The notes under the pieces are model-generated. The model was given only the letters and a program-made list of their open reading frames with translations, did no database searches and was not told where the DNA came from. Shown piece after piece: positions 7,164-23,680 of a stretch of 60,551 bases of DNA (positions are counted from its first letter, which is position 1; each line of letters opens with the position of its first letter). Source of the stretch: Patescibacteria group bacterium (lineage in GTDB: Bacteria; Patescibacteriota; JAHJAL01); contig JBAZOB010000003.1 in assembly GCA_041648895.1 (NCBI GenBank), positions 1-60,551 of the forward strand, read 5' to 3'. Made by a program: the position numbers and the translations under genes.

Positions 7164-9263
7164 TTATTTTATAATGACTGAATATATTTTGTTATCAGCC
7201 AAGAGGTAGATGGTGTTTATTTTTTCATTGACGACAAAATAGTCGATATCACCCAGGTTATCACCAACGACTTGCTGAATGTATGAACCATCATCTTTTT
7301 TAAATTGTAAAATACGTTTGTTGTTGGGATCAGAGATATAGATAAAGTCGGAGTCTTCGTCGGTATAAATATGATTGGGATTAGATAGGGTGCTATATGG
7401 TTCAGGCAGGCCGGATAATTTATATTCGGATGCTTCCCCTTTGATGAATTTAATTATATTGCCGTCCGATTTGAGAACATATATCGCGCCATCGATGGCG
7501 AGTGAGGTGGCGTTGGAGAGGTCCAGGGCGCCGGCATTGACAATGTAATCACTGGCGGTGGAATAACTGGTGCCACCCAAGGTGGAATATTTAAAGATTT
7601 GATTGGCGGCGGGAGATAAAAGGTAGAGGTTGTCATAGTAGGTGGCGAGGCTAACGGCTGGTTGCCAGGCTGAATCGAGGGTGGAAATATCGATCAGGGT
7701 ATTGCCGCTGGGGTCAAACTTTTGCATCAGTCCCTGGTGGTAAAAGATTAGATTGGTCGAGTTGTTGGCTAGTGAAGCATCAACGAAGTTGTTGATGTCA
7801 AAGCCGGTGATGTTGGTGATTTTACCACTGGTAAAATTGATGCTGGCGATATCGTGGGCAAAACTATAGAGATTGTCATCGATCCGGAAGAGGCCATGGT
7901 ATTTTTCTTCAGAAATACTGCTTAGATCGGCCAATGGCTCATTGGTGTTGAGGCGGGATATCTGGTCAACTCCGTCAAGTTTGGAATAGATATTATTGTT
8001 GAGGGAAGTTATTTCTTCACTAAAAAATGGCGATGACTCAATTGATGCCAATAGTTCAAGGGCTTCTGAATATTTACTTTTAGCCCCATTGTTGTCGCCA
8101 ACAATCATGGCATTGTCGGCCTGGCTGGCTAGATCATCGGCTTGGGTCAGAATATTGTCAACGGAATTCTTTTTGTTGTTTAAATTTTGGCGGTTGCGAA
8201 TATAGGTAATACTGAAACCTAAAATGATAATTAGAATAATAATGGCGCCGGCAATATAGTATTGTTTTTGGCCGGGTTTTTGGTTTATTTTTTGGAGCAA
8301 GTTGGTTTTGGTATCGAGGCGGCGCGGAGTTTTAGTTGGTTTGCCGTGTTTAATCACGGGGGCTTTTTTGGGTTTTCTTTGATTGTGATTATCCTGATTT
8401 TCTGTTTTGGGTTGGGAGCGAGCAGCGATTTTTTTGGTGATTTTGTTGATAGAAGCGCCAATTTGAGCAAAGAAATTTCTTGCTTGTTCAGTAATGACGG
8501 AGAATTTAGTGCCTTCATTCTTTTTATCTTGAAGAATAACTTCTTCGGGTTGGGGTTTGACTACTTCTTTGGCTAGTTTTTCTTCAGTGGTGGCTTCCAT
8601 CATAATCGTACCAATGCTGCGAATGTTTTCTTGAGCCAGGATACGGGCAATCTCCGCCACACAAGTGGTAGGATTGTGTTGGACTGCTAAACGGCGTAGG
8701 CGATCGAGAGAGATATTATTGAACAGTTGCTCGGTGGAAATGATAATGCGATCGCCAAGAATCATTTTGCCGCTGGAGATGTTAACAAAAGTGTTCAGTG
8801 GGTGTTTATCTTCATTTTTATCTGACAAGCCTTCGGTAATGTGGCTGATAATTTTATTTCTTATCAAAAAAGCCTCACAAGTTCCGGTTTGGGTGAGGTG
8901 AATATCGTGATTGCTGACGACGGCGATGACGGCGTTAAGGTTGTCTATCCAATGAGAATTACCTTGTTCGGCAGCTTCGGCCAAACTTTCATTGACGTAG
9001 CGGAGAGCAATTTCTAAAGAAGTGAGTGGATCATCGAGATTCTTGTAGTAATTTTTGATAGTCGCTTCAACGATGGTATCAAATATTTTTTGGGAATCTT
9101 TTTGGGGGTGATGAATATCGAGGACGAAGAATAAACAACCATGGTTTTTTTGGGAGGTCTTACTGGGAACATAATGTTCAACATGAGTTAGGTGGTCCTG
9201 TCCGGATAACTTACTATAAAGTTTACCGATGCGAACAGTTTTATGTTCTGGTTGCTTTTTCAT
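7164..9263 (-). CDS. Membrane protein with a cytoplasmic PP2C/SpoIIE-like (degenerate) N-domain, one TM, and an extracytoplasmic beta-propeller-like C-domain
   Basis: The N-terminal segment (LNAVIAVVSNHDIHLTQTGTCEAFLIRN...GDRIIISTEQLF) resembles the PP2C fold. A K/R-rich linker is followed by a TM helix (YYIAGAIIILIIILGFSITYI). The C-terminal ~330 aa are repetitive and beta-rich. The call is tentative. Confidence 0.4.
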   Translation of the reverse strand: MKKQPEHKTVRIGKLYSKLSGQDHLTHVEHYVPSKTSQKNHGCLFFVLDIHHPQKDSQKIFDTIVEATIKNYYKNLDDPLTSLEIALRYVNESLAEAAEQGNSHWIDNLNAVIAVVSNHDIHLTQTGTCEAFLIRNKIISHITEGLSDKNEDKHPLNTFVNISSGKMILGDRIIISTEQLFNNISLDRLRRLAVQHNPTTCVAEIARILAQENIRSIGTIMMEATTEEKLAKEVVKPQPEEVILQDKKNEGTKFSVITEQARNFFAQIGASINKITKKIAARSQPKTENQDNHNQRKPKKAPVIKHGKPTKTPRRLDTKTNLLQKINQKPGQKQYYIAGAIIILIIILGFSITYIRNRQNLNNKKNSVDNILTQADDLASQADNAMIVGDNNGAKSKYSEALELLASIESSPFFSEEITSLNNNIYSKLDGVDQISRLNTNEPLADLSSISEEKYHGLFRIDDNLYSFAHDIASINFTSGKITNITGFDINNFVDASLANNSTNLIFYHQGLMQKFDPSGNTLIDISTLDSAWQPAVSLATYYDNLYLLSPAANQIFKYSTLGGTSYSTASDYIVNAGALDLSNATSLAIDGAIYVLKSDGNIIKFIKGEASEYKLSGLPEPYSTLSNPNHIYTDEDSDFIYISDPNNKRILQFKKDDGSYIQQVVGDNLGDIDYFVVNEKINTIYLLADNKIYSVIIK

Positions 9264-9378
9264 ATTCGAACAGCCCTCGTTGGTAGTATAAAATTATACA
9301 TTATAATTATATACATAAAACAACATAAAAGTTAAAGGTTAGCTAGATAATATTTTTACGCATGTGTTAATAATGGAC

Positions 9379-9469
9379 AAATAAATTATGAATTATAAAT
9401 GACAATATTGTAGGGGCGGGTTTGAAACCCGCCCCTACAATATTGTCATTTATAATTCATAATTTATTT
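9379..9469. repeat. 91-nt perfect palindrome: GC-rich hairpin tgtaggggcgggtttgaaacccgcccctaca nested in AT-rich arms
   Basis: The arms aaataaattatgaattataaatgacaatat and its complement are perfect. It overlaps the mutM stop codon and likely acts as a terminator for mutM. Confidence 0.85.
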
Positions 9470-10324
9470 TTGACAGTGGGGGCAGTAGTGGGTGCCACGG
9501 CCGGCAATTTTTATTTTTTTAATTTTGGCCTGATGGCAGGAGAGACAGATTTTTCCCTCTCGGCCGTAAACTTTCAGATGTTGGCTATAATTTCCTTTTG
9601 CTCCTTGGGAATCAACATAGTCACTGAAGGTGGTACCGCGATATTTGATGGCATATTTAATAATTTTATTGGCGGATAAAAATAATTTTTTGATTTCGGT
9701 GGCGGTTAGTTTATTGGTTGTTCGTTGGGGTTTAATTTTGGCCTCATGACAAATCTCGTCGGCGTAGATATTGCCAATGCCGGCGATATTTTTTTGGTTC
9801 AAAAGAGTGGTTTTGATGACGGTTTTTTTATTGGCGAGGGCTTTGGTCAGACTGGCCAGGGTAAAATTTTTCGCCAGGGGTTCAATGCCGTATTCATTGA
9901 CTATGGTTTGGAGTTGTCTATGGTTGACCGTATTCAAATATCCAAATTGACGTTGGTCGTTGAAAAATAATTGCGAATGATCAGCAAAGGTAAAAATGAT
10001 ATGTGAATATTGATTGGGTAAGCAAAGGCCTAGTGGGGGATAGTTGTGGCCGCCGGCGACGATGGTTTGGCAGTGCTGATAAATTAATTGTCCGGTCATT
10101 TTCAAATGAATCAGCAGGTATTTTTTATTATCAAGGGCAAATATCAGTAGTTTTCCCACCCGATTAATCTGGGTAATTTTATGGTGGTATAAATCTCGAC
10201 TAAAAGTTTTCAGGCTATTTTTTATTAATTTTTTTTTACCAATCACAATATCCACAATTTTTTTATTGATAATTGCTTTGGCTAAATCACGGCGGATTGT
10301 TTCGACTTCGGGTAGTTCGGGCAT
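9464..10324 (-). CDS. mutM: Formamidopyrimidine-DNA glycosylase
   Basis: N-terminal MPELPEVET catalytic motif, H2TH region, and C-terminal zinc finger CLSC...CPHC. Confidence 0.92.
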   Translation of the reverse strand: MPELPEVETIRRDLAKAIINKKIVDIVIGKKKLIKNSLKTFSRDLYHHKITQINRVGKLLIFALDNKKYLLIHLKMTGQLIYQHCQTIVAGGHNYPPLGLCLPNQYSHIIFTFADHSQLFFNDQRQFGYLNTVNHRQLQTIVNEYGIEPLAKNFTLASLTKALANKKTVIKTTLLNQKNIAGIGNIYADEICHEAKIKPQRTTNKLTATEIKKLFLSANKIIKYAIKYRGTTFSDYVDSQGAKGNYSQHLKVYGREGKICLSCHQAKIKKIKIAGRGTHYCPHCQK

Positions 10325-10329
10325 ATGAA

Positions 10330-11439
10330 TTATATTTCAATCCAACTCAATCGTTTGGAGCTGGGAGTGATATTGACTGGTTGGCCATTTTTGAGATAAA
10401 TGATGTCTTCCAGACGTAGGCCGCCCCAGCCGGGGAAATAGAGTCCGGGCTCGATGGAAAAAACCATGTTGTTGGTTAATTTGGTGGTAATTTTTGGTTT
10501 GAGAGAGGGGGCTTCGTGGATGGCTAAACCAATGCCGTGGCCGGTGCCATGGATAAAGTTCGATTCTAGATGATGTGGCTTGAGTGCTGAACGCACAAAA
10601 TTATCGATTTCGCCGCTAGTGGTGCCAGGCCTAATTTGTTTAATGGTTTTGTTTTGGATTTGCAGTAAGATTTGATAGCGGGTGGTGAATTCAGGGGATG
10701 GTTGTCCTAGGTAAATGGCGCGAGTCATATCACCACAGTATCCCTGGTATTTACACCCCAGATCGATGAGTAAAATATTACCATTTTTTATTTTAGTTTG
10801 ATTACTGTGATGATGCGGAATGGCGGAATTGCTTCCAAAAGCGACGATTGGTTCAAAACTATTGCCATCAGCGTACTGGAGAAAAAAGACACTGATGGCT
10901 CGACTGATTTCTATTTCAGTTATGCCGGGCCGAAGCAGCGAGAGGGCGTGTTTGTATCCCAAGGAGGTAATCTGAGCGGCTTTTTTGAGTAGTTTAATTT
11001 CAGTTTCGTCTTTAATGGTTCTGGCTAGATCGATGATCTCAGAGATGTCGGTAGTTAATTTAGGGTTAATGACTTGGTAAATTTGATTGAGGTCAAAATA
11101 GGAAATGTGTTGATATTCAAGACCGATCTGACCTTTGCCGGCGACGTTTTTGATAATATTGCCGATAGTATGGCCACTCGCGGGGGCGGGAATTTCTATA
11201 AAGGTAAAATCTTTATATTTTTTTAACTCTCTCTTTAGTCGAGAGTCGCCTAGTATATATTGTTGTTTTCGGTGGATAATAAGAAAAACTTCCGGATCGG
11301 ACATTGGTTGGATATTGCCCTCTATCTCTGGTGAAAAACCAGAGTAGTAGTATATGTTTTGTGGGTTGGCAATAAAAGCCAAATCAATTTTATTTTTGGA
11401 TAGGTCTTCTACTAATTGGTTTATTCGTTTTCGGTACAT
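10330..11439 (-). CDS. M24 family Xaa-Pro peptidase
   Basis: HGTGHGIGLAIHEAP and EPGLY metal-binding motifs. An N-terminal creatinase-like domain is present. Confidence 0.85.
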   Translation of the reverse strand: MYRKRINQLVEDLSKNKIDLAFIANPQNIYYYSGFSPEIEGNIQPMSDPEVFLIIHRKQQYILGDSRLKRELKKYKDFTFIEIPAPASGHTIGNIIKNVAGKGQIGLEYQHISYFDLNQIYQVINPKLTTDISEIIDLARTIKDETEIKLLKKAAQITSLGYKHALSLLRPGITEIEISRAISVFFLQYADGNSFEPIVAFGSNSAIPHHHSNQTKIKNGNILLIDLGCKYQGYCGDMTRAIYLGQPSPEFTTRYQILLQIQNKTIKQIRPGTTSGEIDNFVRSALKPHHLESNFIHGTGHGIGLAIHEAPSLKPKITTKLTNNMVFSIEPGLYFPGWGGLRLEDIIYLKNGQPVNITPSSKRLSWIEI

Positions 11440-11490
11440 AATTAATTACGAATTAAGAATTAAGAATATTCTTCTCTTATTTGTAATTAA

Positions 11491-11640
11491 AAAAGTCGGC
11501 CTAAAGTAACTCTCCTCGAACTCGATTTTCTGTATGATGAAGAATGGATCAAGAAGATGAATCAGGCCAAGAAGATACTCGAGGAGGTTTACGAGGAAGG
11601 AAACGTAAAACCGAAGGTCCCTATCCTCAACCTTTACTAA
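11491..11640 (+). other. Start-less 49-codon coding remnant, proposed as the alternative C-terminal extension of the recombinase in the excised circular form
   Basis: Open frame KSRPKVTLLELDFLYDEEWIKKMNQAKKILEEVYEEGNVKPKVPILNLY* with no start codon. It begins with the same in-frame AAA AGT CGG (K S R) that precedes the recombinase stop region at 18111..18119. Confidence 0.45.
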
Positions 11641-11681
11641 TTTATTATAATGGATAGGTAATAATAATTAAATCCAAGCTA

Positions 11682-11861
11682 ATGAGCGATGATATAAAGA
11701 CTGATCAAAATGAGGGGGAAGATAATTTGGGTAATGTATTAAATATAGTCAAAGAATCCGATGACTCTAAACTCGAAGATTATCAAACAAGAGATAGGCG
11801 TGGACGAAAAGTTATTCTGACAGAGCTAGAAGATGACAGCATTATGAATAAAGAGTTTTAA
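11682..11861 (+). CDS. Small acidic hypothetical protein (59 aa), below the ORF-track cutoff
   Basis: ATG 11682 to TAA 11859-11861: MSDDIKTDQNEGEDNLGNVLNIVKESDDSKLEDYQTRDRRGRKVILTELEDDSIMNKEF. No family was recognised. Confidence 0.3.
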   Translation: MSDDIKTDQNEGEDNLGNVLNIVKESDDSKLEDYQTRDRRGRKVILTELEDDSIMNKEF

Positions 11862-11905
11862 TATTAATAACAAGCTAAAAACGCTCGAACTATCACAAGC
11901 TACAC

Positions 11906-12631
11906 CTAAAGATTATTAGTTATATTCATTAATATCAATATGAGTCGAGAGGATAATTCTTTGTTAGCATAGTCAATTTTTCTTCCATGTAAAATATCAT
12001 TTCTAAATTCACCAAACACATCTTCAATTACATCAAATAATACCTTATTATTAGTAAACTCGTTCTCCTTTTTTGAAAGATATTGAATGATATTTCTAAT
12101 AGTTGGTTTTTGTCTTTGGTTTTTCTTTGCACATTCTTTACATAATTTGGTCATACATTCATCACAAATAGCAGTATAACCTTTGATATCTTTAGGAACA
12201 CTAATGTGAATCTCAAAAAATAAGCCATCTATTTGAGTTAATAGTACAGGTATGGATAGAATAAAATTAGTATCAAAGTGAGCTTGAACAGCTTTATTTA
12301 TAATGTGTTTTCTTTTATTTTTTTGTAGTTTCTTATTGAAAAAATTTTTTATTTTGCTCGCACTATATTGTGATTCCAGTAAATTACTGATTTTGATGTC
12401 TAAAATGCCATCATATTGCTCTTCTAACTTATCTAATTCATACCCTAAGCTCACAAGCGGATCAGTAAGATTTTTTATTGCCGTGCTTACCTCCTGTTCT
12501 CTTTTCTCATAATCTTTTAGAGTTTTGGCAAGTTCAGCAAGTTCCTTAGATGGCAAAATGTCATTTAAGTTATCAAAATATGCTTTGTAATTTCTAAAAT
12601 CAATACGATTATTATCCTTTGTTTTTTTCAT
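11906..12631 (-). CDS. HEPN-like (Rx4H) domain protein, candidate RNase/abortive-infection effector
   Basis: The C-terminal helical domain has FGEFRNDILHGRKIDY (R-N-x-x-x-H-G, the HEPN signature). An upstream helix reads AVQAHFDTNFILSIPVLLTQIDGLFFE. The N-terminal half is coiled-coil. It sits directly downstream of a PIN gene. Confidence 0.5.
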   Translation of the reverse strand: MKKTKDNNRIDFRNYKAYFDNLNDILPSKELAELAKTLKDYEKREQEVSTAIKNLTDPLVSLGYELDKLEEQYDGILDIKISNLLESQYSASKIKNFFNKKLQKNKRKHIINKAVQAHFDTNFILSIPVLLTQIDGLFFEIHISVPKDIKGYTAICDECMTKLCKECAKKNQRQKPTIRNIIQYLSKKENEFTNNKVLFDVIEDVFGEFRNDILHGRKIDYANKELSSRLILILMNITNNL

Positions 12632-12640
12632 ATTATTTAA

Positions 12641-13087
12641 TTAGCCGATATTTACTTTTTTTATATATTCCCCAATGTTATAAACTTCGAGATTGAGTTC
12701 TTTTGCTTTTTTATAAAGATGATTATCTTCAGTTATTAATGGAATTTTATCTTTATAAGCAATGCTTAATAATAAGCAATCACCCGCCTTTATATATGGC
12801 AATTTGGCATTAAAATATTTACGAAAAAATTCTTGGTTAATATCCAATGCATTTAGTTTTAATGCATTCTTTTCATTTATCCCTTTGTATTCTGTGCTCC
12901 CATTATGACGTTCTTGTTTTGAGCCGCTAGAAAATTCGAATATCGAAAATAATGTCACTGTAATTGTGATATTATTTTCTATTGCATACTCACCAATTTT
13001 CTTAGCTTTAGAATGCCGACTTCTATTCTTGAAGAATATGTCTAAAAGAACACACGTATCAACGACAATATTCATAGTATTACTCAA
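12641..13087 (-). CDS. PIN-domain nuclease (VapC-like)
   Basis: Acidic residues in PIN order: IVVDTCVLLD, IFEF, AGDCLLL, ITEDNH. There is no obvious small antitoxin gene upstream. The start overlaps the lipoprotein gene stop by 8 nt. Confidence 0.7.
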   Translation of the reverse strand: MSNTMNIVVDTCVLLDIFFKNRSRHSKAKKIGEYAIENNITITVTLFSIFEFSSGSKQERHNGSTEYKGINEKNALKLNALDINQEFFRKYFNAKLPYIKAGDCLLLSIAYKDKIPLITEDNHLYKKAKELNLEVYNIGEYIKKVNIG

Positions 13088-13607
13088 GTTCCCAAATCAC
13101 CTGTGTCGTGTCGACGAACGATAAAGGCTCATAGATGAACTCAAATTGGTTATTTGCCATGTCTGCGGGTACCTCATAGGCAACATATCCTTTTGCCTTT
13201 CTAGTGGGTTGTAGGGTGCCACTATTTAAGCTTGGATCAACGTCTGTAAATGCTGTATCATAACTAGCCCCATCTTTATCAACTAATTTGAAATTTAGCA
13301 TATTGTAGCTTGTTGAATCAGAAGAAACGTTTTCTATTTCTACCATGATAGCAAGATATGTGTGTCCATCTTTAGCTTTCATAAAATCATTACTAGATAC
13401 ATAGTCTTTGACCTCCGTGAGAGCAATCTTTTGTCCGTCAACTTCTACAACATCATTCAATTTATAAATCACAGGCTTTTTAACTTCTTCCTGTTTGTTT
13501 TGATTTTGTTCAGTTGACACCTTTCCAGTATTTACTTCTGTAGAAGGCAAACAACCGGCTAGTAACAAAATTGAAATTAGACTGGCAAATAAAATTGACT
13601 TTTTCAT
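13080..13607 (-). CDS. DUF4352-like lipoprotein
   Basis: Lipobox LLAGC after MKKSILFASLISI. The pattern DGHTYLAIMVEIENVS...KGYVAYEVP is typical of DUF4352. The start was moved to ATG 13607, which has GGAGA upstream. Confidence 0.6.
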   Translation of the reverse strand: MKKSILFASLISILLLAGCLPSTEVNTGKVSTEQNQNKQEEVKKPVIYKLNDVVEVDGQKIALTEVKDYVSSNDFMKAKDGHTYLAIMVEIENVSSDSTSYNMLNFKLVDKDGASYDTAFTDVDPSLNSGTLQPTRKAKGYVAYEVPADMANNQFEFIYEPLSFVDTTQVIWELE

Positions 13608-13624
13608 TTTTTTTCTCCAATAAA

Positions 13625-13906
13625 TTAAATACCATTTTCTTTTAAACATTTATAATACTGATCATTGAAATAATCGTTCATGCAGTCTTCAATTTCCGAA
13701 TCACTTTTTATTTCAGGTTTTTTCCATTCTGTTTGCATATAATCTAGTGGACTATTGTCACATTTAGTGTAACTATTTACTAACTCTTCGGCTCTCTGGC
13801 TACAGAATTTTTTGGTTTGGGATGGTCTGTACGCAAACCAATAGAAGGATAATCCGAAAATTATCAACAAAACCAAAGATAAAAATACTATATTATATTT
13901 CTTCAT
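13625..13906 (-). CDS. Small membrane-anchored hypothetical protein
   Basis: N-terminal TM helix (IVFLSLVLLIIFGLSFYWF) and a Cys-containing ectodomain. The start is likely MKKYN at 13906. Confidence 0.4.
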   Translation of the reverse strand: MKKYNIVFLSLVLLIIFGLSFYWFAYRPSQTKKFCSQRAEELVNSYTKCDNSPLDYMQTEWKKPEIKSDSEIEDCMNDYFNDQYYKCLKENGI

Positions 13907-13914
13907 AATGAATA

Positions 13915-14610
13915 TTAGCCACAAATATTCTCACATGGTACACCATCATTGTCTTGGTCCTTGTCACCACAACCAACATCATTGAGATACCAATATGCTT
14001 CCTGACAACTGATCATTTCATCACATCGCTTATCACAAGTCATGCTGGTAAATTCTTGTTTTGGTACTTTGAAAGCCGGTCCTTCATACGTCCAATTACT
14101 ATCCGTATTTTTTACTTTATTCATCTCATTTTCATCTGCCGTATAGAAATGATGAAGAAATACAGGGCTCCAAAAACGATAAACTGTCTCAGTTTCGACC
14201 GGACCACTATAGCTCAGAGGATATACATAGTATGCAATCCATTCATATTTCCAGTTTGAATCCGTGTCTTTGACTTTTACATATTCGTTATAATCAGAAG
14301 TGTAAAAATGACCATGAAATACATCTGACCAAAAACGATACAAGGGTTCAGTCCCCTCAACCTGGGTTTTATACGCGCTGAAAGCAACTTTCTCGTAGGT
14401 CCAGTTTGAATCGGTATTCTTGACTTTGGTCGCCTCATCAAAATCAATAGTGAAGAAATGACCATGAAATACATCGGACCAATAACGATATACATAATCA
14501 GCCTCTGTAGTCTCCTCCTGCGGTAAATTTGATGTCACCGCATAGGTGATACCACCTCCAACCAGACTAACCAGCAGAAGGGCAAACAGAATTGTTTTTA
14601 GTTTTTTCAT
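13915..14610 (-). CDS. Secreted protein with three DUF5648-type repeats and a C-terminal Excalibur calcium-binding domain
   Basis: Signal peptide. The repeat YRFWS[DP]VF.[GH]HF[YF]T.D..E...VK.TDSNW.YE occurs 3 times. The C-terminal GCGDKDQDNDGVPCE matches the Excalibur DxDxDGxxCE motif. Confidence 0.65.
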   Translation of the reverse strand: MKKLKTILFALLLVSLVGGGITYAVTSNLPQEETTEADYVYRYWSDVFHGHFFTIDFDEATKVKNTDSNWTYEKVAFSAYKTQVEGTEPLYRFWSDVFHGHFYTSDYNEYVKVKDTDSNWKYEWIAYYVYPLSYSGPVETETVYRFWSPVFLHHFYTADENEMNKVKNTDSNWTYEGPAFKVPKQEFTSMTCDKRCDEMISCQEAYWYLNDVGCGDKDQDNDGVPCENICG

Positions 14611-14849
14611 AATTCCTCTTATTAATAAAATTAAATAAAGTATATATTAATCAGATTAAGAATTTATTAAGACTATACAAAAATGGTCCTCCGACCAGAC
14701 GACAATCCCTTTCGAGATTGCCCCAAACTCTTTCGAGTGAGGACCTACGTGAATAAGTGTCGGTCATGAGGACCGTCTTCATTCACGTAGGTTTTAAAAA
14801 CCATACTTCAGTAAATTGAAGGTTAGGTTATTTGTCTAATATAATCGTA

Positions 14850-15302
14850 TTATACTTTGTTCTCGGCGGCAATTTTTGCTTGTCTTTCTTTTTCTTTAGC
14901 TTCAGCTACATGAGGACCAACAAACTGCGATCTTTCCATACCGAAGTGAACTATAATTCTTTCGTCATTAGCCATTTCTGGATTCTCTTTCCATCCGTAT
15001 CTATTCTTAAAATTAAAGCCCCATACCTTGGCATTAAAACCCTTTAACTTGCCCATCATGCCGTTAATACCCGCTTGCTCCCAAAATAATCTACATTGTC
15101 GCTTAGCCTTTGCTATTCTATCGGCCGGAAAATCATTTGGATATTTCTTCATATACGACTCAATTGTCTTATAGCTACAATCAGGAAAACATTCCTTTGA
15201 TAATCCTCCAGCTAGATGAGCACAATATTTTGAACAAAGCCCCTTGCGGGCCTTACTGGTTTTGTATTTAAGGGCGAATTGGTTATTCTGGTTATTAGTC
15301 AT
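14850..15302 (-). CDS. Phage terminase small subunit-like DNA-binding protein
   Basis: The pattern ...LAGGLSKECF...YKTIESYMKKYPNDF...FWEQAGINGMMGKLKGFNAKVWGFNFKNRYGWKE matches my recollection of the HTH plus FN..W.FN.KNR.GW signature of phage TerS proteins. Confidence 0.5.
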   Translation of the reverse strand: MTNNQNNQFALKYKTSKARKGLCSKYCAHLAGGLSKECFPDCSYKTIESYMKKYPNDFPADRIAKAKRQCRLFWEQAGINGMMGKLKGFNAKVWGFNFKNRYGWKENPEMANDERIIVHFGMERSQFVGPHVAEAKEKERQAKIAAENKV

Positions 15303-15309
15303 TTAAGTA

Positions 15310-15798
15310 TCATCTATCACAATGTTGTACTTTTCCTCTGTATACTTCTTTAATCTTGTCTTCGTACTGATTTGGAATAGTATACAAAGGAGAATATTTG
15401 CCAATATTCATGATCGCACCCGTCTGGTCTTTGTTGCTTTCTATGTGACGGTTTACTACATTCTCAACACAGATATACGGCTCATTTTCGAAAAAAATCC
15501 AATCTACTTCGATTTCATTATTAAAGGCATTTTGAATATTTGTCACCGCTTCCTGACGAGCTTCTTCACGACAAAAATCAATATCAAGAATTGCGCAATC
15601 TTTTCCCTCCTCTAATTGTTTCATTAGAGAGCTATAATGCTGACTCATGTTAAATGCGCTATCGTCATTTACAGCACCAGCCTTATAGTCATCAAATACA
15701 GAATAGCCCTGACTTGATAGTTCATTGACTATACTCGTTTTGCCTGAGCCAGGCAGACCTACAATAAACAAAATTTTTCTATCCATTGTTAACTCCAT
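15310..15798 (-). CDS. P-loop NTPase/kinase-like protein
   Basis: Walker A GLPGSGKT near the N-terminus. Small size (162 aa). The start overlaps the stop of the upstream gene. Confidence 0.55.
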   Translation of the reverse strand: MELTMDRKILFIVGLPGSGKTSIVNELSSQGYSVFDDYKAGAVNDDSAFNMSQHYSSLMKQLEEGKDCAILDIDFCREEARQEAVTNIQNAFNNEIEVDWIFFENEPYICVENVVNRHIESNKDQTGAIMNIGKYSPLYTIPNQYEDKIKEVYRGKVQHCDR

Positions 15799-16421
15799 TA
15801 ATTAATAATGAAACTAATATCGAAAAATGATATTACAATTAGTAATAACCCTATAATAAACAACCACGTGCATACGTCTGATACTTTTTGGAAAAAAATA
15901 CTTTCTTTAACTTCCAGAAGTTTTGTTTCAAGTTCTGCAAATTCATAGATCATGTATCTTCTTGTTTCCTCAGTAACTTCGGGCAATATTTTACGCTCTT
16001 TATTTTTTAGTAATAAATCAGTCTCCTTTTTTGATGACATTTTTATAAACTCTAATTTATCGCTAAGGCCATTATTTTCGGCTGAAATAATTTTATTAAG
16101 ATAAACTATACTAAGAATCATCTGGGTTAGCAGTAAAATCATGCCAATAAAAGTGATCTTTCTCATTGCAAAAATATCAGGGTACTGACTTACTAATGGC
16201 ACAATTGGGGCTAGAATTAATAATGAAAGTGTATCTAAATGAATTTGGTATTTTCTAATCCAATCTATATTTTTTATTGATAAATTTCTAACGACTTCAA
16301 TGCTGGTGTTTTTCCTGTTTATTGAATCCTTGACATTGTTAAGATAGTACTGATTAAACTGATTAATTTCTTGTTGTTTTGATCTATCATCTGTGTTTTC
16401 TGGTGAATTATTATTCTCCAT
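15798..16421 (-). CDS. Hypothetical membrane protein (3 predicted TM helices)
   Basis: Hydrophobic segments LSLLILAPIVPLV, ITFIGMILLLTQMILSIVYL and WLFIIGLLLIVISFF. No family was recognised. Confidence 0.4.
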   Translation of the reverse strand: MENNNSPENTDDRSKQQEINQFNQYYLNNVKDSINRKNTSIEVVRNLSIKNIDWIRKYQIHLDTLSLLILAPIVPLVSQYPDIFAMRKITFIGMILLLTQMILSIVYLNKIISAENNGLSDKLEFIKMSSKKETDLLLKNKERKILPEVTEETRRYMIYEFAELETKLLEVKESIFFQKVSDVCTWLFIIGLLLIVISFFDISFIIN

Positions 16422-16463
16422 ATTTTGTTATTAGTATAATTAAATCATAATCTAAAAAATAAA

Positions 16464-18134
16464 ATGCTCGAAAACATAAAAACCAGCGAGGACCTTGCGA
16501 ATCTATACAGAAAGATCAAAGAGATTGAGGAAATCGATATCACCAAGCTCCGTTTCGTCATGTATACCCGCAAATCTACCAAAGATGAAAAGCGACAAGC
16601 CAAATCTATACCCGATCAGATAACAGAATGCAAACAAACTGCTGAACGTCTCAATCTTAACATAACTGCTATTGTTAAGGAAAAAGAATCAGCCAAGGAA
16701 CCAAATATTCGGCCCAAATTTCGTCAAATGCTGAATGATATAAAAGCTGGGAAATATGATGCCGTGTTGGCGTGGCATCCAGATCGTCTCTCTCGCAACA
16801 TGATGGAGGCTGGAGAGATCATAGATATGCTGGATAAAAACCTTATCAAGAGCCTCAAATTTGCTAGTTTTGAATATACCAATGATGCTTCCGGTAAGAT
16901 GCTACTTGGTATAGCCTTTGTACTTTCAAAACAATATACAGACAAATTAAGTAAAGACGTGAGCAGAGGAATAAAACGAGGTATTGAGAGAGGCCAATAC
17001 TTGAACAAAGGAAAACATGGATATTACAAGGATATAAATCAATATTTACGACCGGAAGAGGTCCATTTTAACCTCTTGCAAAAAGCATGGTATTTGAGAG
17101 TAGAAGGCAATTCTCTCGATTATATTGCCAACTATATGAACGAGCACAACTACCAAAGACGATACAAAGGTACTCACAAATTAAAGAAATTCAAATTTGA
17201 TAAAAGACGACTATCTGAGCTATTTCGAGATCCTTTTTATTGCGGGGTATTAGTTTATGGTAAAGATACAGTTTGTAATCTAGGCGAGGTTTTGGATGAC
17301 TTTGTGCCGATGATAGACGTTTCTGTCTTTCTTAAAATAAATAAACTCAAAGGCGAAAAAGAGCTTTTTGCTCTAGCTAGAAAACATCGTGAAGATGTGC
17401 TAGCGGACCTGATGAGAGGAAAAATTATTTGTGGTCATTGCAATGAGCCCTACACTTCAGGAATCACTGTCAAATACAAAAAGGATAAAAAGGGAAAAGT
17501 AATATCCACGGAGCACAGATATTATTATCGTTGCGAAACTGTAAAATGCAAGATGAGAAACGAGTCTATACCACCAAGAACATATTTGGAGTTTGCCCAC
17601 GATCTATTTAGTGACAATTTGACATTAATCGAAAATAAAAAGGCATTTGATATATACGTTAAGCATGCAAAGAAAGCCATTAAATACAAGGTTAGAGAAT
17701 TGACTGATACTAGATATGGCTTATATAAAGAAGAAGCTCTGTTGAAGGAAAAAATTGAAGAAACAAAGAGGATAATCGTTGATCATAGGGATGATAAAAT
17801 TTTAGTTGAAGAATTTACCGAAGATCTAAAGAAACAAAAAGAAGAGCTTAAAACAGTATCAGATACGATCCAAAATATCACTGACGTATTAAAAGATACT
17901 GAAAAACTGATTTATTCCTATCCAGAGTTTCTCGAACTAATTGCGAAAATACCGTCTAGGATTAAAAAGACTAAAAATATGGCCGCACTCGACAAACTAA
18001 TGAAAAATATCTTCTCGAACTTTGTCATTAAAAATCGAAAAGTTGCTTCCTATGAACTAAAAGAACCCTTCAAACAAATTATGAAAGGTGCTCTTGACTC
18101 AAAAGTCCTAAAAAGTCGGGGATACCGGACTTGA
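16464..18134 (+). CDS. Large serine recombinase (integrase)
   Basis: Resolvase-type N-domain (MYTRKSTKDE with catalytic Ser, WHPDRLSRN), recombinase domain, Zn-ribbon CGHC...YYYRCETVKC, and a coiled-coil C-terminus. The last 19 nt overlap tRNA-Pro on the opposite strand. Confidence 0.85.
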   Translation: MLENIKTSEDLANLYRKIKEIEEIDITKLRFVMYTRKSTKDEKRQAKSIPDQITECKQTAERLNLNITAIVKEKESAKEPNIRPKFRQMLNDIKAGKYDAVLAWHPDRLSRNMMEAGEIIDMLDKNLIKSLKFASFEYTNDASGKMLLGIAFVLSKQYTDKLSKDVSRGIKRGIERGQYLNKGKHGYYKDINQYLRPEEVHFNLLQKAWYLRVEGNSLDYIANYMNEHNYQRRYKGTHKLKKFKFDKRRLSELFRDPFYCGVLVYGKDTVCNLGEVLDDFVPMIDVSVFLKINKLKGEKELFALARKHREDVLADLMRGKIICGHCNEPYTSGITVKYKKDKKGKVISTEHRYYYRCETVKCKMRNESIPPRTYLEFAHDLFSDNLTLIENKKAFDIYVKHAKKAIKYKVRELTDTRYGLYKEEALLKEKIEETKRIIVDHRDDKILVEEFTEDLKKQKEELKTVSDTIQNITDVLKDTEKLIYSYPEFLELIAKIPSRIKKTKNMAALDKLMKNIFSNFVIKNRKVASYELKEPFKQIMKGALDSKVLKSRGYRT

Positions 18135-18189
18135 ACCGGTGACCTCATGCACCCCATGCATGCGCGCTAGCCAACTGCGCTAATCCCCG
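18116..18189 (-). tRNA. tRNA-Pro (anticodon GGG)
   Basis: Hand-folded cloverleaf: CGGGGAT/ATCCCCG acceptor, GCGC D-stem, CATGC-ATGGGGT-GCATG anticodon arm, ACCGG-TTCAAGT-CCGGT T-arm. Length 74 nt. Confidence 0.85.
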
Positions 18190-18225
18190 AAAGATTTGAT
18201 CTTTGGTTGGAAACTAATATTAATT

Positions 18226-18368
18226 TTGGATGTTGATAAATTTTCAATTTTAAATTTCTAATTTTCAATGATTGAGTCGCTTCGCGACAATATTATATAT
18301 ATCCGTCGCCTTGGCGACACCTCCATTGAAAATTAGAAATTTAAAATTGAAAATATATCAACATCCAA
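18226..18368. repeat. 143-nt palindrome: 45-nt AT-rich arms enclosing two GC-rich mini-hairpins
   Basis: The arm ttggatgttgataaattttcaattttaaatttctaattttcaatg pairs with its complement with one mismatch. The loop contains gtcgcttcgcgac and gtcgccttggcgac. It lies just downstream of the M50 gene on the minus strand. Confidence 0.8.
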
Positions 18369-18389
18369 GGTGACTAATATTGTTTGTGT

Positions 18390-22484: not shown

Positions 22485-23378
22485 TTAGCTTTTTGTACTG
22501 GATTGATGTTTGCTAAATATAGTTTCTATTTCTCCAAGTAGTTTTAGGCCAGATTGTCTTTTTTGGGGATCACTTTCGGGAGCAGAGGTAAGAGAGAGTT
22601 TTTTTTCTGGCAATTGTTCTTTAACTAAAGTGTATTTTTCATTGGTGTGCCATGGCAAATATATTCCTCGGTAGTATTCTTGGGAAAATATTTCTTGGTC
22701 TTTTTTCTTGAAAAAGTCGTGAAAAGAAATAGAGATGTCGGGGTTGTCCAAGAATTGGTATTTAAAGGTATTGATAGCAATGTTACGTGAGCGTCCAGAT
22801 TCTACCCAATCATCTACAATCATGATTTTGTAATCAGTTTGATTTTTAGTTTTTTTGTCATCGTTGATGCTTTGTTTTAGTTTGCTAAAATATCCTTGAT
22901 CAATTAATTGTTTGTCGTATTTTTCCCAATAGTCTTTAAATTTTACTTTATCAGATTGTTCTATTTGAGATATCATTTTTTGGATTATATTACGGGTTCC
23001 TTCATTATTAATTTTATTCTTTTTTTTTATTAGATCTTCTTTTTCGTAACGTCGTTCAAATGTTTCATAACTTGTGACTTCTCGGTAATCATCCTTCATC
23101 ATATCTAATTTTTCTTGTCCGATATTAGTATATCTTATTTGGGGTAACTTCTTAGCTTTTGTTTTTTCAGTTTTTCCCCATGCCGCTTTGAGCATCCAGG
23201 ATATAGGTCGGGCGGATTTGTCCATGAAAATGAGCATATCAATTTTTTGGTCGGCAATTTTATCAACCAATTCGAATGTCCTTTGTCTAATGGCATCTAT
23301 TTTTTCGGGGGTGTCAAATAATTTTTCAGATCCGGATATATTTTCTTCTTCAAAATTTTTTGATTCAATATTTGACAT
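22485..23378 (-). CDS. Hypothetical protein, possibly phosphoribosyltransferase-like
   Basis: KIMIVDDWVESGRS resembles the PRPP-binding loop, and DMLIFMDKSARPISW resembles the first PRT strand/loop. A large K/E-rich insertion lies between them. Weak call. Confidence 0.3.
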   Translation of the reverse strand: MSNIESKNFEEENISGSEKLFDTPEKIDAIRQRTFELVDKIADQKIDMLIFMDKSARPISWMLKAAWGKTEKTKAKKLPQIRYTNIGQEKLDMMKDDYREVTSYETFERRYEKEDLIKKKNKINNEGTRNIIQKMISQIEQSDKVKFKDYWEKYDKQLIDQGYFSKLKQSINDDKKTKNQTDYKIMIVDDWVESGRSRNIAINTFKYQFLDNPDISISFHDFFKKKDQEIFSQEYYRGIYLPWHTNEKYTLVKEQLPEKKLSLTSAPESDPQKRQSGLKLLGEIETIFSKHQSSTKS

Positions 23379-23680
23379 TTTAACTTGTTAGTTAGTTAAT
23401 TGAATTATCATAGTATTGTATCATTATTAAACATAATATTCAATATATTCATTAAACATAATATTCAATATATTCAATGCTTGTTTTTCTATGTCATAGT
23501 CAATCAGATAGAGAAGTATTTCCTCCGATTAAAAAAGTTGCGAGAATAAGTTAAATCTAATAGAATGATAGAGTAATGTTTATTGATATTATTCTATGTT
23601 TTAATTTAATTTTTGAAAGAGTTAAGTTATTTGTACAGGAAGGAATTTGGAATTTATAATTATAAATCAGGGAGTTAGAT

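Follow-up and report, generated by a model that had tools for sequence, protein, structure and literature searches.

A tRNA-Pro integrative island with its attachment site inside the large serine recombinase gene

Results

An island bounded by a core repeat at tRNA-Pro

The DNA analysed here, a single stretch of 60.5 kb (the window), contains at positions 11496-18119 what we take, with a probability of roughly 0.8, to be a 6.6-kb integrative island of a Patescibacteria-like genome, inserted by a large serine recombinase (LSR) at the extreme 3' end of tRNA-Pro(GGG) and carrying attP inside its integrase (int) open reading frame; this reading includes the proposals, developed below, that the enzyme reads the tRNA T-loop and that its C-terminus depends on the state of the element. 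The attP-in-int layout is a family trait and no accident of this locus, recurring in dozens of sampled elements of ultra-small (CPR) bacteria. No published account of an LSR gene with attP within it was found, as the earlier note had suspected, nor was any found of tRNA T-loop targeting by LSRs.

The 10-mer AAAAAGTCGG, previously noticed as a repeat overlapping the tRNA, occurs exactly twice in the window (0.15 matches expected by chance), and two matches were obtained in 1 of 100 shuffles. The two copies bracket an island of 6,620 bp that contains the LSR gene. By the ARAGORN call the right copy shares 5 nt with the tRNA; taking the discriminator base (18116) as the tRNA end reduces this to 4 nt. 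The interior is AT-richer, as had been claimed (GC 0.27–0.38 versus 0.35–0.47 in the flanks), and its GC skew runs counter to that of the flanks, both of which are strongly positive. The predicted attP junction of the island reads ...CCTAAAAAGTCGGCCTAAAGTAACTC... and its reconstructed attB ...TAATTAAAAAAGTCGGGGATACCGG...; a search for this empty site and circular junction, which the earlier note had proposed, detected neither in the metagenome and viral contig collections searched.

A related element, L005, lies in a syntenic genome, likewise at tRNA-Pro(GGG), and its recombinase is 73% identical to that of the window. Similarity between the two starts exactly at the left core and stops exactly at the right core while the left host flanks differ, which identifies the segment as a bounded foreign element. 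These boundaries and the common core TCGG support the initial proposal of an integrated element with its attachment site in the recombinase gene. A 10-nt repeat picked post hoc is weak by itself, and the region might have been ordinary chromosome beside a resident recombinase gene; this explanation is effectively refuted by boundaries that are base-exact against both L005 and a second relative, L105, by the foreign composition and by the family-wide occurrence of attL/attR pairs, tails and the shifted hexamer described below.

Table 1. Coordinates of the features of the island and its target in the window
Feature	Position	Strand	Remarks
attL host-side left arm (B arm)	11460..11489	.	Separates the start of the pepP-like gene from the core; holds small palindrome AAGAATATTCTT and an A-run; no similarity to the matching flank of L005 or L105
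attL core copy, 10-nt AAAAAGTCGG	11490..11499	+	Crossover probably in TCGG (11496-11499); common core of attL/attR in window and L005 is TCGG
Orphan recombinase tail, start-less 49-codon frame (KSR + 46 aa + stop)	11491..11640	+	In the circle, would continue the recombinase after codon 549
attP element-side right arm (P' arm), today within attL	11500..11530	+	30/31 nt the same in window and L005
T-loop mimic TCGAAC in P' arm	11516..11521	+	Distance to the core exceeds that of the real T-loop (tRNA arm) by 5 bp; encodes conserved Glu-Leu of ..LLELD..
Acidic small ORF, 59 aa, conserved	11682..11861	+	41 nt past the tail stop; L005 and L105 have homologous ORFs in the same place
Cargo ORF, 241 aa	11906..12631	-	No confident family
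Cargo PIN-domain protein, 148 aa	12641..13087	-	PF01850, E = 3e-13
Cargo DUF4352 protein, 189 aa, predicted lipoprotein-like N-terminus	13080..13649	-	PF11611, E = 4e-22; phrog_806
Cargo ORF, 99 aa, hydrophobic N-terminus	13625..13924	-	
Cargo secreted DUF5648 repeat protein with Excalibur domain, 231 aa	13915..14610	-	Homologue in L005 and L105
Cargo ORF, 150 aa	14850..15302	-	No family match
Cargo small P-loop NTPase or kinase-like protein, 162 aa	15310..15798	-	Weak matches only
Cargo ORF, 207 aa, predicted membrane protein	15798..16421	-	No family match
LSR gene, integrated form, 556 aa	16464..18134	+	Codons 1-552 element-derived; codons 553-556 (GYRT) and stop from antisense tRNA-Pro
attP element-side left arm (P arm)	18080..18109	+	Within the recombinase coding sequence, codons about 540-549
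attR core copy, 10-nt AAAAAGTCGG	18110..18119	+	Codons K550, S551, R552
tRNA-Pro(GGG), integration target	18115..18189	-	Body is the host-side right arm (B'); T-loop antisense TTGAAC at 18131-18136

Integration exchanges the C-terminus of the recombinase

The integrated gene, which encodes Resolvase, Recombinase and Zn-ribbon domains, borrows its last four codons and its TGA stop from the antisense acceptor and T arms of the tRNA. The ending ...VLKSR-GYRT*, the final 19 nt antisense to the tRNA and the start-less left frame beginning with KSR were all found as first read. The stop (18132-18134) sits within the antisense T-loop hexamer. The crossover core (TCGG within AAAAAGTCGG, where the exchange probably takes place) lies in codons 550-552, and attP is therefore inside the int gene. 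At the left end, the frame opens right after a TAA (11488-11490) and reads KSR-PKVTLLELDFLYDEEWIKKMNQAKKILEEVYEEGNVKPKVPILNLY* up to 11640; no ORF of at least 40 aa is listed on its opposite strand.

From this gene layout, the excised circle would encode a 598-aa recombinase with a 46-aa C-terminal tail, which integration strands, start-less, at the far end of the island. We infer rather than observe the circular form of this subfamily, because no full-length recombinase with the tail subtype of the window is present among 1.84 billion representative proteins. Of the earlier idea that circularization rebuilds a tailed recombinase, what stands is backed by tail homologues in L005 and L105 and by relatives with an intact attP; the circle of this particular element was not found in the contig collections searched.

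Full-length genes do occur where attP is intact. One is encoded by a 4,929-bp contig (L003) with a 30-nt terminal overlap, whose recombinase (P0081, 577 aa) carries a tail; the contig is apparently circular, a conclusion that rests on reading the overlap, as we do, as k-1 of an assembler run with k=31. At another locus (L001) two related elements lie in tandem, and the inner recombinase (P0092, 592 aa) reads over the junction into the left end of the next element. The tails of these more distant homologues match the orphan tail in length, in their ..T.LEL.. start and in their hydrophobic or aromatic end. The AF2 model of P0092 matches the full-length LSR structures of the SPbeta, phiC31, Bxb1 and LI integrases; its tail is modelled with low confidence (pLDDT <65) and so gives no structural hint of a role.

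The orphan tail is conserved

According to the earlier note, a peptide from 11491-11640 unlike the C-termini of all homologous recombinases would have spoken against the proposal; the resemblance is clear, the orphan tail of L005 being 79% identical and that of L105, at a different attL, 62%, with the tails of P0081 and P0092 alike. Changes in the DNA of both orphan tails are mostly synonymous. Tail dN/dS was 0.13 for window versus L005, 0.07 for L032 versus L033 and 0.21 for L037 versus L048; for the recombinase body the latter two pairs gave 0.10 and 0.08, dS being saturated between window and L005. By this measure (dN/dS 0.13) the orphan tail is under purifying selection, part of its conservation not being at the protein level, as the start of the tail is also under DNA-level constraint from the T-loop mimic.

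These values bear on whether loss of the tail inactivates the recombinase and locks the integrated copies, as proposed for SSV-type integrases of Thermococcales, with the orphan tails merely recent. No free or empty-site form of the window subfamily was found in the collections searched, and decayed remnants of an upstream recombinase lie beside some tails (L033, L026, left end of L001), both in favour of such suicidal integration. However, three diverged subfamily members (62–79% tail identity, pS 0.5) still have complete orphan tails on which purifying selection acts, and this requires repeated passage through the attP state; the recombinase genes are intact in most integrated loci and, unlike in SSV, only a short C-terminal appendix is lost and no catalytic part. 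We consider this alternative improbable.

The layout across the family

A total of 611 recombinase homologues were found, mostly of about 540–560 aa, many with C-termini that are antisense-tRNA translations. Among 68 sampled homologous gene copies, almost all from Patescibacteria, at least 52 stop within the antisense 3' end of a tRNA (13 isoacceptor types by ARAGORN) and four more run into tRNA-like DNA; the codon phase at the junction is kept in 43 of the 52. An in-frame tail of 34–60 codons is opened by 24 of 51 upstream core matches, against 7 and 4 in the other two frames, and by 5/29 and 7/35 in control regions; these 51 matches provide the only unbiased count, the curated attL set having been picked partly for the presence of a tail. 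Such family-level controls show that the repeat with its open frame is not a product of chance.

Orphan tails of 38–52 codons lie in frame at the far end of many loci from many lineages; upstream of the core, the frames are closed within 1–18 codons in most loci. A functionally neutral tail, with attP placed at the 3' end of int in a compact element, the 46 residues a tolerated read-through and the isoforms alike, would fit several observations: an attP of about 50 bp suffices for LSRs, all catalytic and DNA-binding domains are upstream of the core, the integrated forms end in arbitrary residues, 3 to about 40 of them, supplied by the tRNA, so that variation is tolerated, and the model of the tail is of low confidence. 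We regard it as unlikely, since the tail extends for about 140 nt, far past a 25–30-bp half-site, its length is kept across those lineages, its dN/dS is in the range of the enzyme body where computable, though it is start-less when integrated, and its hydrophobic or aromatic C-terminal end recurs between subfamilies (..NLY, ..IIY, ..YVL, ..VKL).

A T-loop copy in the element-side arm

Each of the 22 sites examined has, in its element-side arm, a copy of the T-loop hexamer (TYGAAC) displaced outward by exactly 5 bp relative to the real T-loop (positions 23–28 in 22/22 P' arms versus 18–23 in the tRNA arm). This copy co-varies with the tRNA: Gly tRNAs with TCTAAC are matched by P' arms with TCAAAC or TTAAAC. 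It doubles as the codons for ..LEL.., ..LKL.. or ..FE.. at the start of the tail. Comparison of the left half-sites (P versus B arms) revealed no clear motif shifted by 5 bp. The offset on the right matches that of the LI/A118 integrase, for which the zinc-ribbon motif of attP is 5 bp more distal than that of attB (PMC3783163). The pattern suggests that, for this family, the universally conserved tRNA T-loop (antisense TYGAAC) serves as the motif that the zinc-ribbon domain reads in the host-side half-site.

Discussion

To our knowledge, attP lies outside the int gene in the LI/A118, phiC31, Bxb1 and SPbeta systems. These canonical LSRs share with the window family the domain order (catalytic N-terminal domain, recombinase domain, zinc ribbon with inserted coiled coil), a short core and the zinc-ribbon offset (PMC3783163); the structural matches of the AF2 model agree with this. 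Unlike the window family, they target protein-coding genes or intergenic sites, and they depend on a separate RDF protein for directionality. As of 2014, according to the Islander paper, no serine integrase was known to use a tRNA gene as its target.

The nearest parallels involve tyrosine recombinases. For myxophage Mx8, the account in PMC4383910, citing Tojo et al. 1996, describes an attP in the 3' part of the integrase gene (IntP/IntX), a tRNA target and a prophage isoform with a replaced C-terminus. The window element resembles it in all three respects, but its enzyme is an LSR, different in fold, chemistry and att-site logic, and its layout recurs in dozens of the members sampled from a family of hundreds of homologues. 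In the SSV-type ('suicidal') integrases of archaeal viruses and plasmids, the recombination site is likewise within the integrase ORF; integration splits this ORF and excision restores it (PMC7253208). Essential parts of those archaeal tyrosine recombinases are separated into two pseudogenes, whereas here only an appendix of 38–52 aa is detached and the catalytic and DNA-binding domains all stay in one ORF.

Our preferred reading is that a state-dependent C-terminus biases the reaction. The tail would be a functional peptide, translated only where attP is intact (in a circle or at a tandem junction), and the element would yield different integrase isoforms in its free and inserted states. Of these, the full-length form would be able to carry out attP x attB integration, and the tRNA-capped short form would differ in direction or stability. 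Engineered phiC31 integrase-RDF fusions, as reported in PMC5737554, offer a possible analogy, their C-terminal extension setting the direction catalysed; those are artificial and use a known RDF, while the present extension is natural, is on the form expected to integrate and has a putative effect.

The tail might instead be a stability signal, a degron or stabilizer, by analogy with mycobacteriophage integration-dependent immunity (Broussard et al. 2013; PMC8092301), where attP is inside the repressor gene and integration removes an ssrA-like C-terminal degradation tag. There too free and integrated C-termini differ, the stop comes from host or tRNA-adjacent sequence and the isoform reports the topological state; the principle is documented, in repressor genes served by tyrosine integrases, while here the split gene is that of the integrase itself. 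The conserved hydrophobic or aromatic tail ends would suit such a signal, but they are not ssrA-like (-AA), and 45 residues are long for a tag. We hold a stability signal to be doubtful.

The acidic 59-aa ORF is a candidate cofactor; in the circle it would come immediately after the full-length recombinase gene, in the same orientation, and analogous small ORFs follow the tail in L001, L003, L004, L020, L023, L025 and L053. Among the cargo, the DUF4352 gene was found also in L005 and in the L004 contig.

Island boundaries and the split recombinase gene

Exact searching found the 10-mer AAAAAGTCGG at two sites only in the window, one at each end of the island beside tRNA-Pro(GGG) (see table). 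The sole long plus-strand ORF between these repeats is that of the recombinase and ends in ..VLKSR-GYRT, where the repeat supplies KSR, and GYRT and the TGA stop derive from the tRNA, read antisense through its acceptor and T arms. At the left repeat, an open frame starts immediately 3' of a TAA, reads KSR-PKVTLLELDF...ILNLY and then stops (the tail). Fusion of 16464-18119 to 11500-11640 produces an ORF of 598 aa. Repeat, ORF end, antisense overlap and left frame had all been pointed out in the earlier note, and each held when its coordinates were rechecked. The junctions predicted for this element, reconstructed from sequence, are CAAAAGTCCTAAAAAGTCGGCCTAAAGTAACTCTCC (attP) and TTTGTAATTAAAAAAGTCGGGGATACCGGACTTG (attB). 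Neither a second recombinase nor a second tail occurs within the window.

The AT-rich interior described earlier is borne out by a GC content lower than that of the flanks. GC skew is also opposite, negative over 11750-16500 and strongly positive (0.2-0.4) in both flanks, although the flanking genes at 7164-11439 share their strand with the island genes. The flanks carry housekeeping genes (M24 peptidase, MutM, M50 protease, HolB and PSP1).

Two further features of the host DNA were observed. Between 5000 and 25000 its positive skew (0.2-0.4) is unusually strong whatever the gene orientation, turning negative only in the island and briefly at ∼22750-23500, near tRNA-Thr and tRNA-Trp, a patch in which GC goes down to 0.26-0.30. 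Between tRNA-Pro and the M50 protease gene, on the host side, lies a large inverted repeat with 66-nt arms, 85% complementary and spaced by 33 nt. The 30-nt core of its arm has no other copy in the window, and the repeat is missing at the syntenic locus L005; a MITE-like insertion and a regulatory hairpin are both candidates.

Coordinates of features in the window and on contigs carrying related elements
Feature	Sequence	Position	Strand	Remark
TAA before the tail	Window	11488-11490
Core repeat, left	Window	11490-11499
Tail	Window	11491-11640		Start-less frame
TCGAAC	Window	11516-11521		P' arm (element-side right half-site)
Small ORF	Window	11682-11861
Recombinase ORF	Window	16464-18134	Plus	556 aa
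Core repeat, right	Window	18110-18119
tRNA-Pro(GGG)	Window	18115-18189	Minus	ARAGORN
TTGAAC	Window	18131-18136		tRNA arm
Inverted repeat	Window	18215-18379
Small ORF	L005	1933-2112
Small ORF	L105	521-697
Small ORF	L001	7877-8086 and 11796-12011
Small ORF	L003	4794-4919
Small ORF	L023	8680-8871
Small ORF	L020	5942-6196
ATPase gene	L003	118-1821		567 aa
Copies of recombinase 3' end	L001	7694-7721 and 11612-11639		28 nt
Recombinase remnant	L033	∼2960-3365		134 codons
Recombinase remnant	L026	∼3300-3398		30 codons
Match to window P' arm	L103	8692-8712		Soil metagenome
Match to window P' arm	L104	7433-7453		Soil metagenome

The enzyme is a large serine recombinase

The window protein contains a resolvase-type catalytic domain (PF00239, E = 4e-24, residues 32-178) and a Recombinase domain (PF07508, E = 9e-9), and its PDB sequence matches are to the N-terminal domain of TP901-1 integrase. 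Among 28 homologues, Y34 and R36 of the nucleophile motif Y-x-R-x-S are invariant, with K37 and S38 at least 90% conserved. The zinc ribbon (PF13408) scored 24.2 bits, slightly below the 25.3 cut-off; C323, C326, C357 and C362, invariant in the same 28 sequences, form a four-Cys zinc ribbon.

Architecture was assessed on the AF2 model of a homologue, P0092 (mean pLDDT 82), in place of the window protein. The model comprises catalytic, recombinase and zinc-ribbon domains, a long coiled coil (390-477, helices 390-438 and 442-477) and a final beta-hairpin (514-529). Its best Foldseek/PDB matches are the full-length SPbeta, phiC31, Bxb1 and LI integrases (E = 3e-17 to 1e-9), so the tail would emerge just after the zinc-ribbon domain. 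The tail itself is modelled as a low-confidence helix, which gives no structural clue to its role. By its catalytic domain, recombinase and zinc-ribbon region, the coiled coil predicted in its homologue and its right att half-sites, the window protein classes as a large serine recombinase (LSR).

The orphan tail is under purifying selection

The closest homologue of the window recombinase, P0002 (73% identity), is encoded on L005 in a syntenic gene order: mutM, island, tRNA-Pro(GGG), M50, L28, holB and PSP1. At the right junction the similarity between the two recombinases extends to ..AAAAGTCGG, followed by the tRNA, and at the left junction it begins at TCGG followed by CCTGAAGTAACTCTCCTCGAACTCGATTTTCT; the host flank to the left on L005 is unrelated to that of the window and lacks pepP. 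These limits narrow the shared core to TCGG, the complement of the discriminator and the first three acceptor base pairs.

The left end of the L005 element encodes R-PEVTLLELDFLYDEEWVRKMNQAKKILEEVFEDKKTKPKFPILNLY and a stop, a tail 79% identical to that of the window with many synonymous differences. When the 49-aa tail was searched with phmmer against 1.84 billion representative proteins, a single match was returned, P0121 (62% identity), a third orphan tail located on L105, where a host terminator hairpin immediately precedes it and the same small ORF comes next. The comparison with homologues suggested in the earlier note therefore yields two orphan relatives of the tail, and no full-length recombinase with this tail subtype was present among the 1.84 billion proteins.

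Nei-Gojobori estimates were obtained for tail and recombinase body. Between the window and L005, the tail has pS 0.50, pN 0.10 and dN/dS 0.13, the dS of the body being saturated. Two other pairs of related loci gave 0.07 for the tail versus 0.10 for the body (L032 and L033) and 0.21 versus 0.08 (L037 and L048). The tail is thus under purifying selection. Since the frame has no start of its own, it must be translated elsewhere, and the rejoined attP is the only context available.

Recurrence across the family

The reconstructed 598-aa protein retrieved 611 homologues, mostly from Patescibacteria and most of 540-560 aa. Many of their C-termini are translations of antisense tRNA, for example ..SRGAGN (then a stop), ..GTRTRDLSRDR.. 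and ..ARYQLRYSP. A sorting of 120 protein C-termini by regular expressions was too crude and was dropped.

We examined 80 loci from species-representative genomes, nearly all Patescibacteria, together with the loci collected earlier and the window. Of the 68 gene copies whose C-terminus could be aligned, 52 have their stop inside or at an antisense tRNA called by ARAGORN, the types being Pro, Asp, Val, Leu, Ala, Gly, Glu, Ser, Ile, His, Met, Lys and Gln; 43 of these 52 share one codon phase at the junction. Among the other 16 copies, four enter tRNA-like DNA and about five run off the contig. A search for at least 8 nt of the junction in the 10 kb upstream of each gene gave 51 repeat candidates, 24 of which open a 34-60-codon frame in the recombinase phase, compared with 7 and 4 in the other two phases. 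Downstream, the same search yielded such frames for 5 of 29 candidates, and on the reverse complement for 7 of 35. Tails span 38-52 codons across loci and tend to finish in a hydrophobic or aromatic residue, and their frame usually closes 1-18 codons upstream of the core. Judged from the sequences of these loci, the family comprises LSRs that integrate at tRNA 3' ends with attP inside their own ORF. The reading proposed from the window was correct, and the pattern is more general than a single locus could reveal.

At many attB sites, the left arm on the host side consists of a GC-rich hairpin with a T-run after it, terminator-like and abutting the tRNA 3' end (attL flanks of L021, L023, L032, L037, L048, L049 and L105), so these elements insert between terminator and tRNA.

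Full-length genes at intact attP sites

Recombinases with an attached tail were found exactly where predicted, at intact attP. P0081 (577 aa) comes from L003, a Logan contig of 4,929 bp that begins and ends with the same 30 nt, an overlap that we take to be the product of a k=31 assembler; the contig is apparently circular. Its ORF spans ..CGGTGGGCG and TAAGCATACCACGCTCGAAC.. without a break and ends with a 45-aa tail. A similar case is P0019 (583 aa) on L004, with a 23-nt overlap, and L022 and L046, too, resemble attP forms. A Berkelbacteria genome contig (L001) has a tandem pair of related elements, 3.9 kb each, at tRNA-Pro(TGG): the recombinase of the outer element enters the tRNA, that of the inner element (P0092, 592 aa) crosses the boundary between the two into the neighbouring left end, and a third, orphan tail lies at the far left. 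The longer isoform would accordingly be made only from the free form or an intact attP.

On the same contig, a 28-nt stretch left of the outermost tail is identical to the 3' terminus of the gene for the inner recombinase, and remnants of a recombinase C-terminus also lie upstream of the tail in L033 and L026. LSR integration does not regenerate attB, yet in these tandem arrays a second element stands beside an occupied tRNA.

For the exact element of the window, neither the empty site nor the circular junction sought by the earlier note was found in metagenome and viral contigs, where the 32-mer of the P' arm had no exact match. A shorter 21-mer matched only L103 and L104, which carry an identical stretch ..AACTCTCCTCGAACTCGATTTTC.. 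followed by a non-homologous frame, with tRNA genes ∼0.6-2.4 kb off. This stretch may represent a coincidental match or what is left of a decayed attL, and because of the non-homologous frame both contigs were rejected as informative relatives. The IMG/VR relatives L087 and L088 are integrated at tRNA-Gly and add no further free form.

A T-loop hexamer shifted by 5 bp in the right half-sites

With index 0 set at the initial base of the antisense CCA, the T-loop hexamer (TTGAAC, TCGAAC or TCTAAC) occupies indices 18-23 of the tRNA arm. Of the 22 arms examined on the element side, taken from attL or intact attP, every one has a like hexamer at 23-28, a displacement of +5. The shared cores of all pairs intersect at indices 3-5, where the crossover is predicted to lie, across the discriminator and the initial two acceptor base pairs. 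The left arms of P and B sites gave no peak for a motif shifted by 5 bp.

The zinc-ribbon motif of LI integrase lies at positions 16-24 of attP and 11-19 of attB half-sites, a 5-bp shift (Rutherford et al., PMC3783163). The right half-site pattern fits this rule, which suggests that the zinc-ribbon domain reads the tRNA T-loop. Moreover, tRNA-Gly(GCC) of Saccharibacteria has an unusual T-loop, with antisense TCTAAC in place of TYGAAC (L017, L018 and L021), and elements at Gly tRNAs carry TCAAAC or TTAAAC in the mimic position; the mimic thus apparently co-varies with its target.

In translation, the mimic yields the conserved ..LEL.., ..LKLF.. or ..FE.. among the tail's first residues. The 5-bp shift puts the hexamer of the tRNA arm in a different frame, and integrated C-termini fall into two classes because TTGAAC gives a TGA stop and TCGAAC is read through (..TRT..).

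Relation to known systems and possible function

Integrases extending across attP have been noted for Mx8 and SSV, both with tyrosine recombinases, and serine-family integrases were not known to target tRNA genes according to the same Islander paper (PMC4383910). In Mx8 (intP to intX), attP likewise lies within the int ORF and integration alters the C-terminus; the mechanism is alike, but Mx8 Int is a tyrosine recombinase and the window enzyme a serine one. The ‘suicidal' SSV-type integrases split their own gene (PMC7253208), leaving two non-functional fragments of an archaeal tyrosine recombinase, whereas here, in a bacterium, the 556-aa ORF retains every recognised domain and integration detaches no more than the last 46 codons. 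In integration-dependent immunity, attP sits within a repressor gene (PMC8092301) and a degradation tag is lost; here, the split gene is that of the recombinase, and domain and PHROGs scans detected no repressor-like protein in the island. A large LSR survey makes no mention of tRNA targets (Durrant et al., PMC10083194), and in a tycheposon preprint an LSR is reported for a minority of the elements, with no such detail. Within the library searched, literature on serine integrases or recombinases in combination with attP in the gene, Patescibacteria or Saccharibacteria yielded nothing relevant, in keeping with the earlier note, to which no description of this feature for LSRs was known.

The two isoforms may differ in function. 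With a probability of about 0.3, the C-terminal swap might be a built-in switch of direction or state that dispenses with a separate RDF decision, the T-loop motif being kept during retargeting among at least 13 tRNAs. The full-length protein, made only from the intact attP of the circle, would be the integration enzyme; the tRNA-capped short protein, made only from attR, would have a different directional preference (excision-competent or integration-incompetent). During retargeting among at least 13 tRNA species, the zinc-ribbon motif (universal T-loop) would stay constant and the inner half-site alone would vary.

For inserting DNA irreversibly, serine integrases are the principal tools. 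What sets their direction is a central question, to which, to our knowledge, separate RDF proteins have so far been the sole answer. A family found in nature, in which recombination rewrites the gene of the enzyme that catalyses it, provides a directly testable alternative. We know of no short DNA motif in biology more conserved than the tRNA T-loop; the family appears to use it as an outer recognition element, which would explain the spread of related enzymes over 13 tRNA types and also suggests a path to predictable retargeting. The assumption that tyrosine integrases alone target tRNA genes is overturned, and island finders resting on it would miss these elements. Mobile elements of Patescibacteria (CPR) are poorly known, and a widespread class of small mobile islands is identified here.

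Cargo and an associated small ORF

Encoded in the cargo are proteins with PIN, DUF4352 (lipoprotein-like) and DUF5648/Excalibur (secreted) domains, together with a small P-loop NTPase, membrane proteins and several unknowns. When the cargo was scanned with PHROGs and PADLOC, no capsid, terminase, virion, replication or conjugation/transfer genes and no confident defence system came up, nor did these scans support a 150-aa ORF as terminase-small-subunit-like. The element is best called a small integrative island.

In several subfamilies, the tail is followed on its strand by a small ORF (∼40-84 aa), which in most loci overlaps the tail end or lies within ∼40 nt of it. Its N-terminus is acidic or polar, a shared ..G-x-[IV]-x-L-[TG]-[ED].. 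motif stands near its end, and it has no Pfam or PHROG match. No RDF was identified for the window element, this ORF being a candidate only: in the circle it would come directly after the full-length int, and may thus be a cofactor or RDF.

The main cargo of the apparently circular 4.9-kb element L003 is an AAA_15/AAA_21 ATPase, of an OLD/ABC-like family often found in defence systems.
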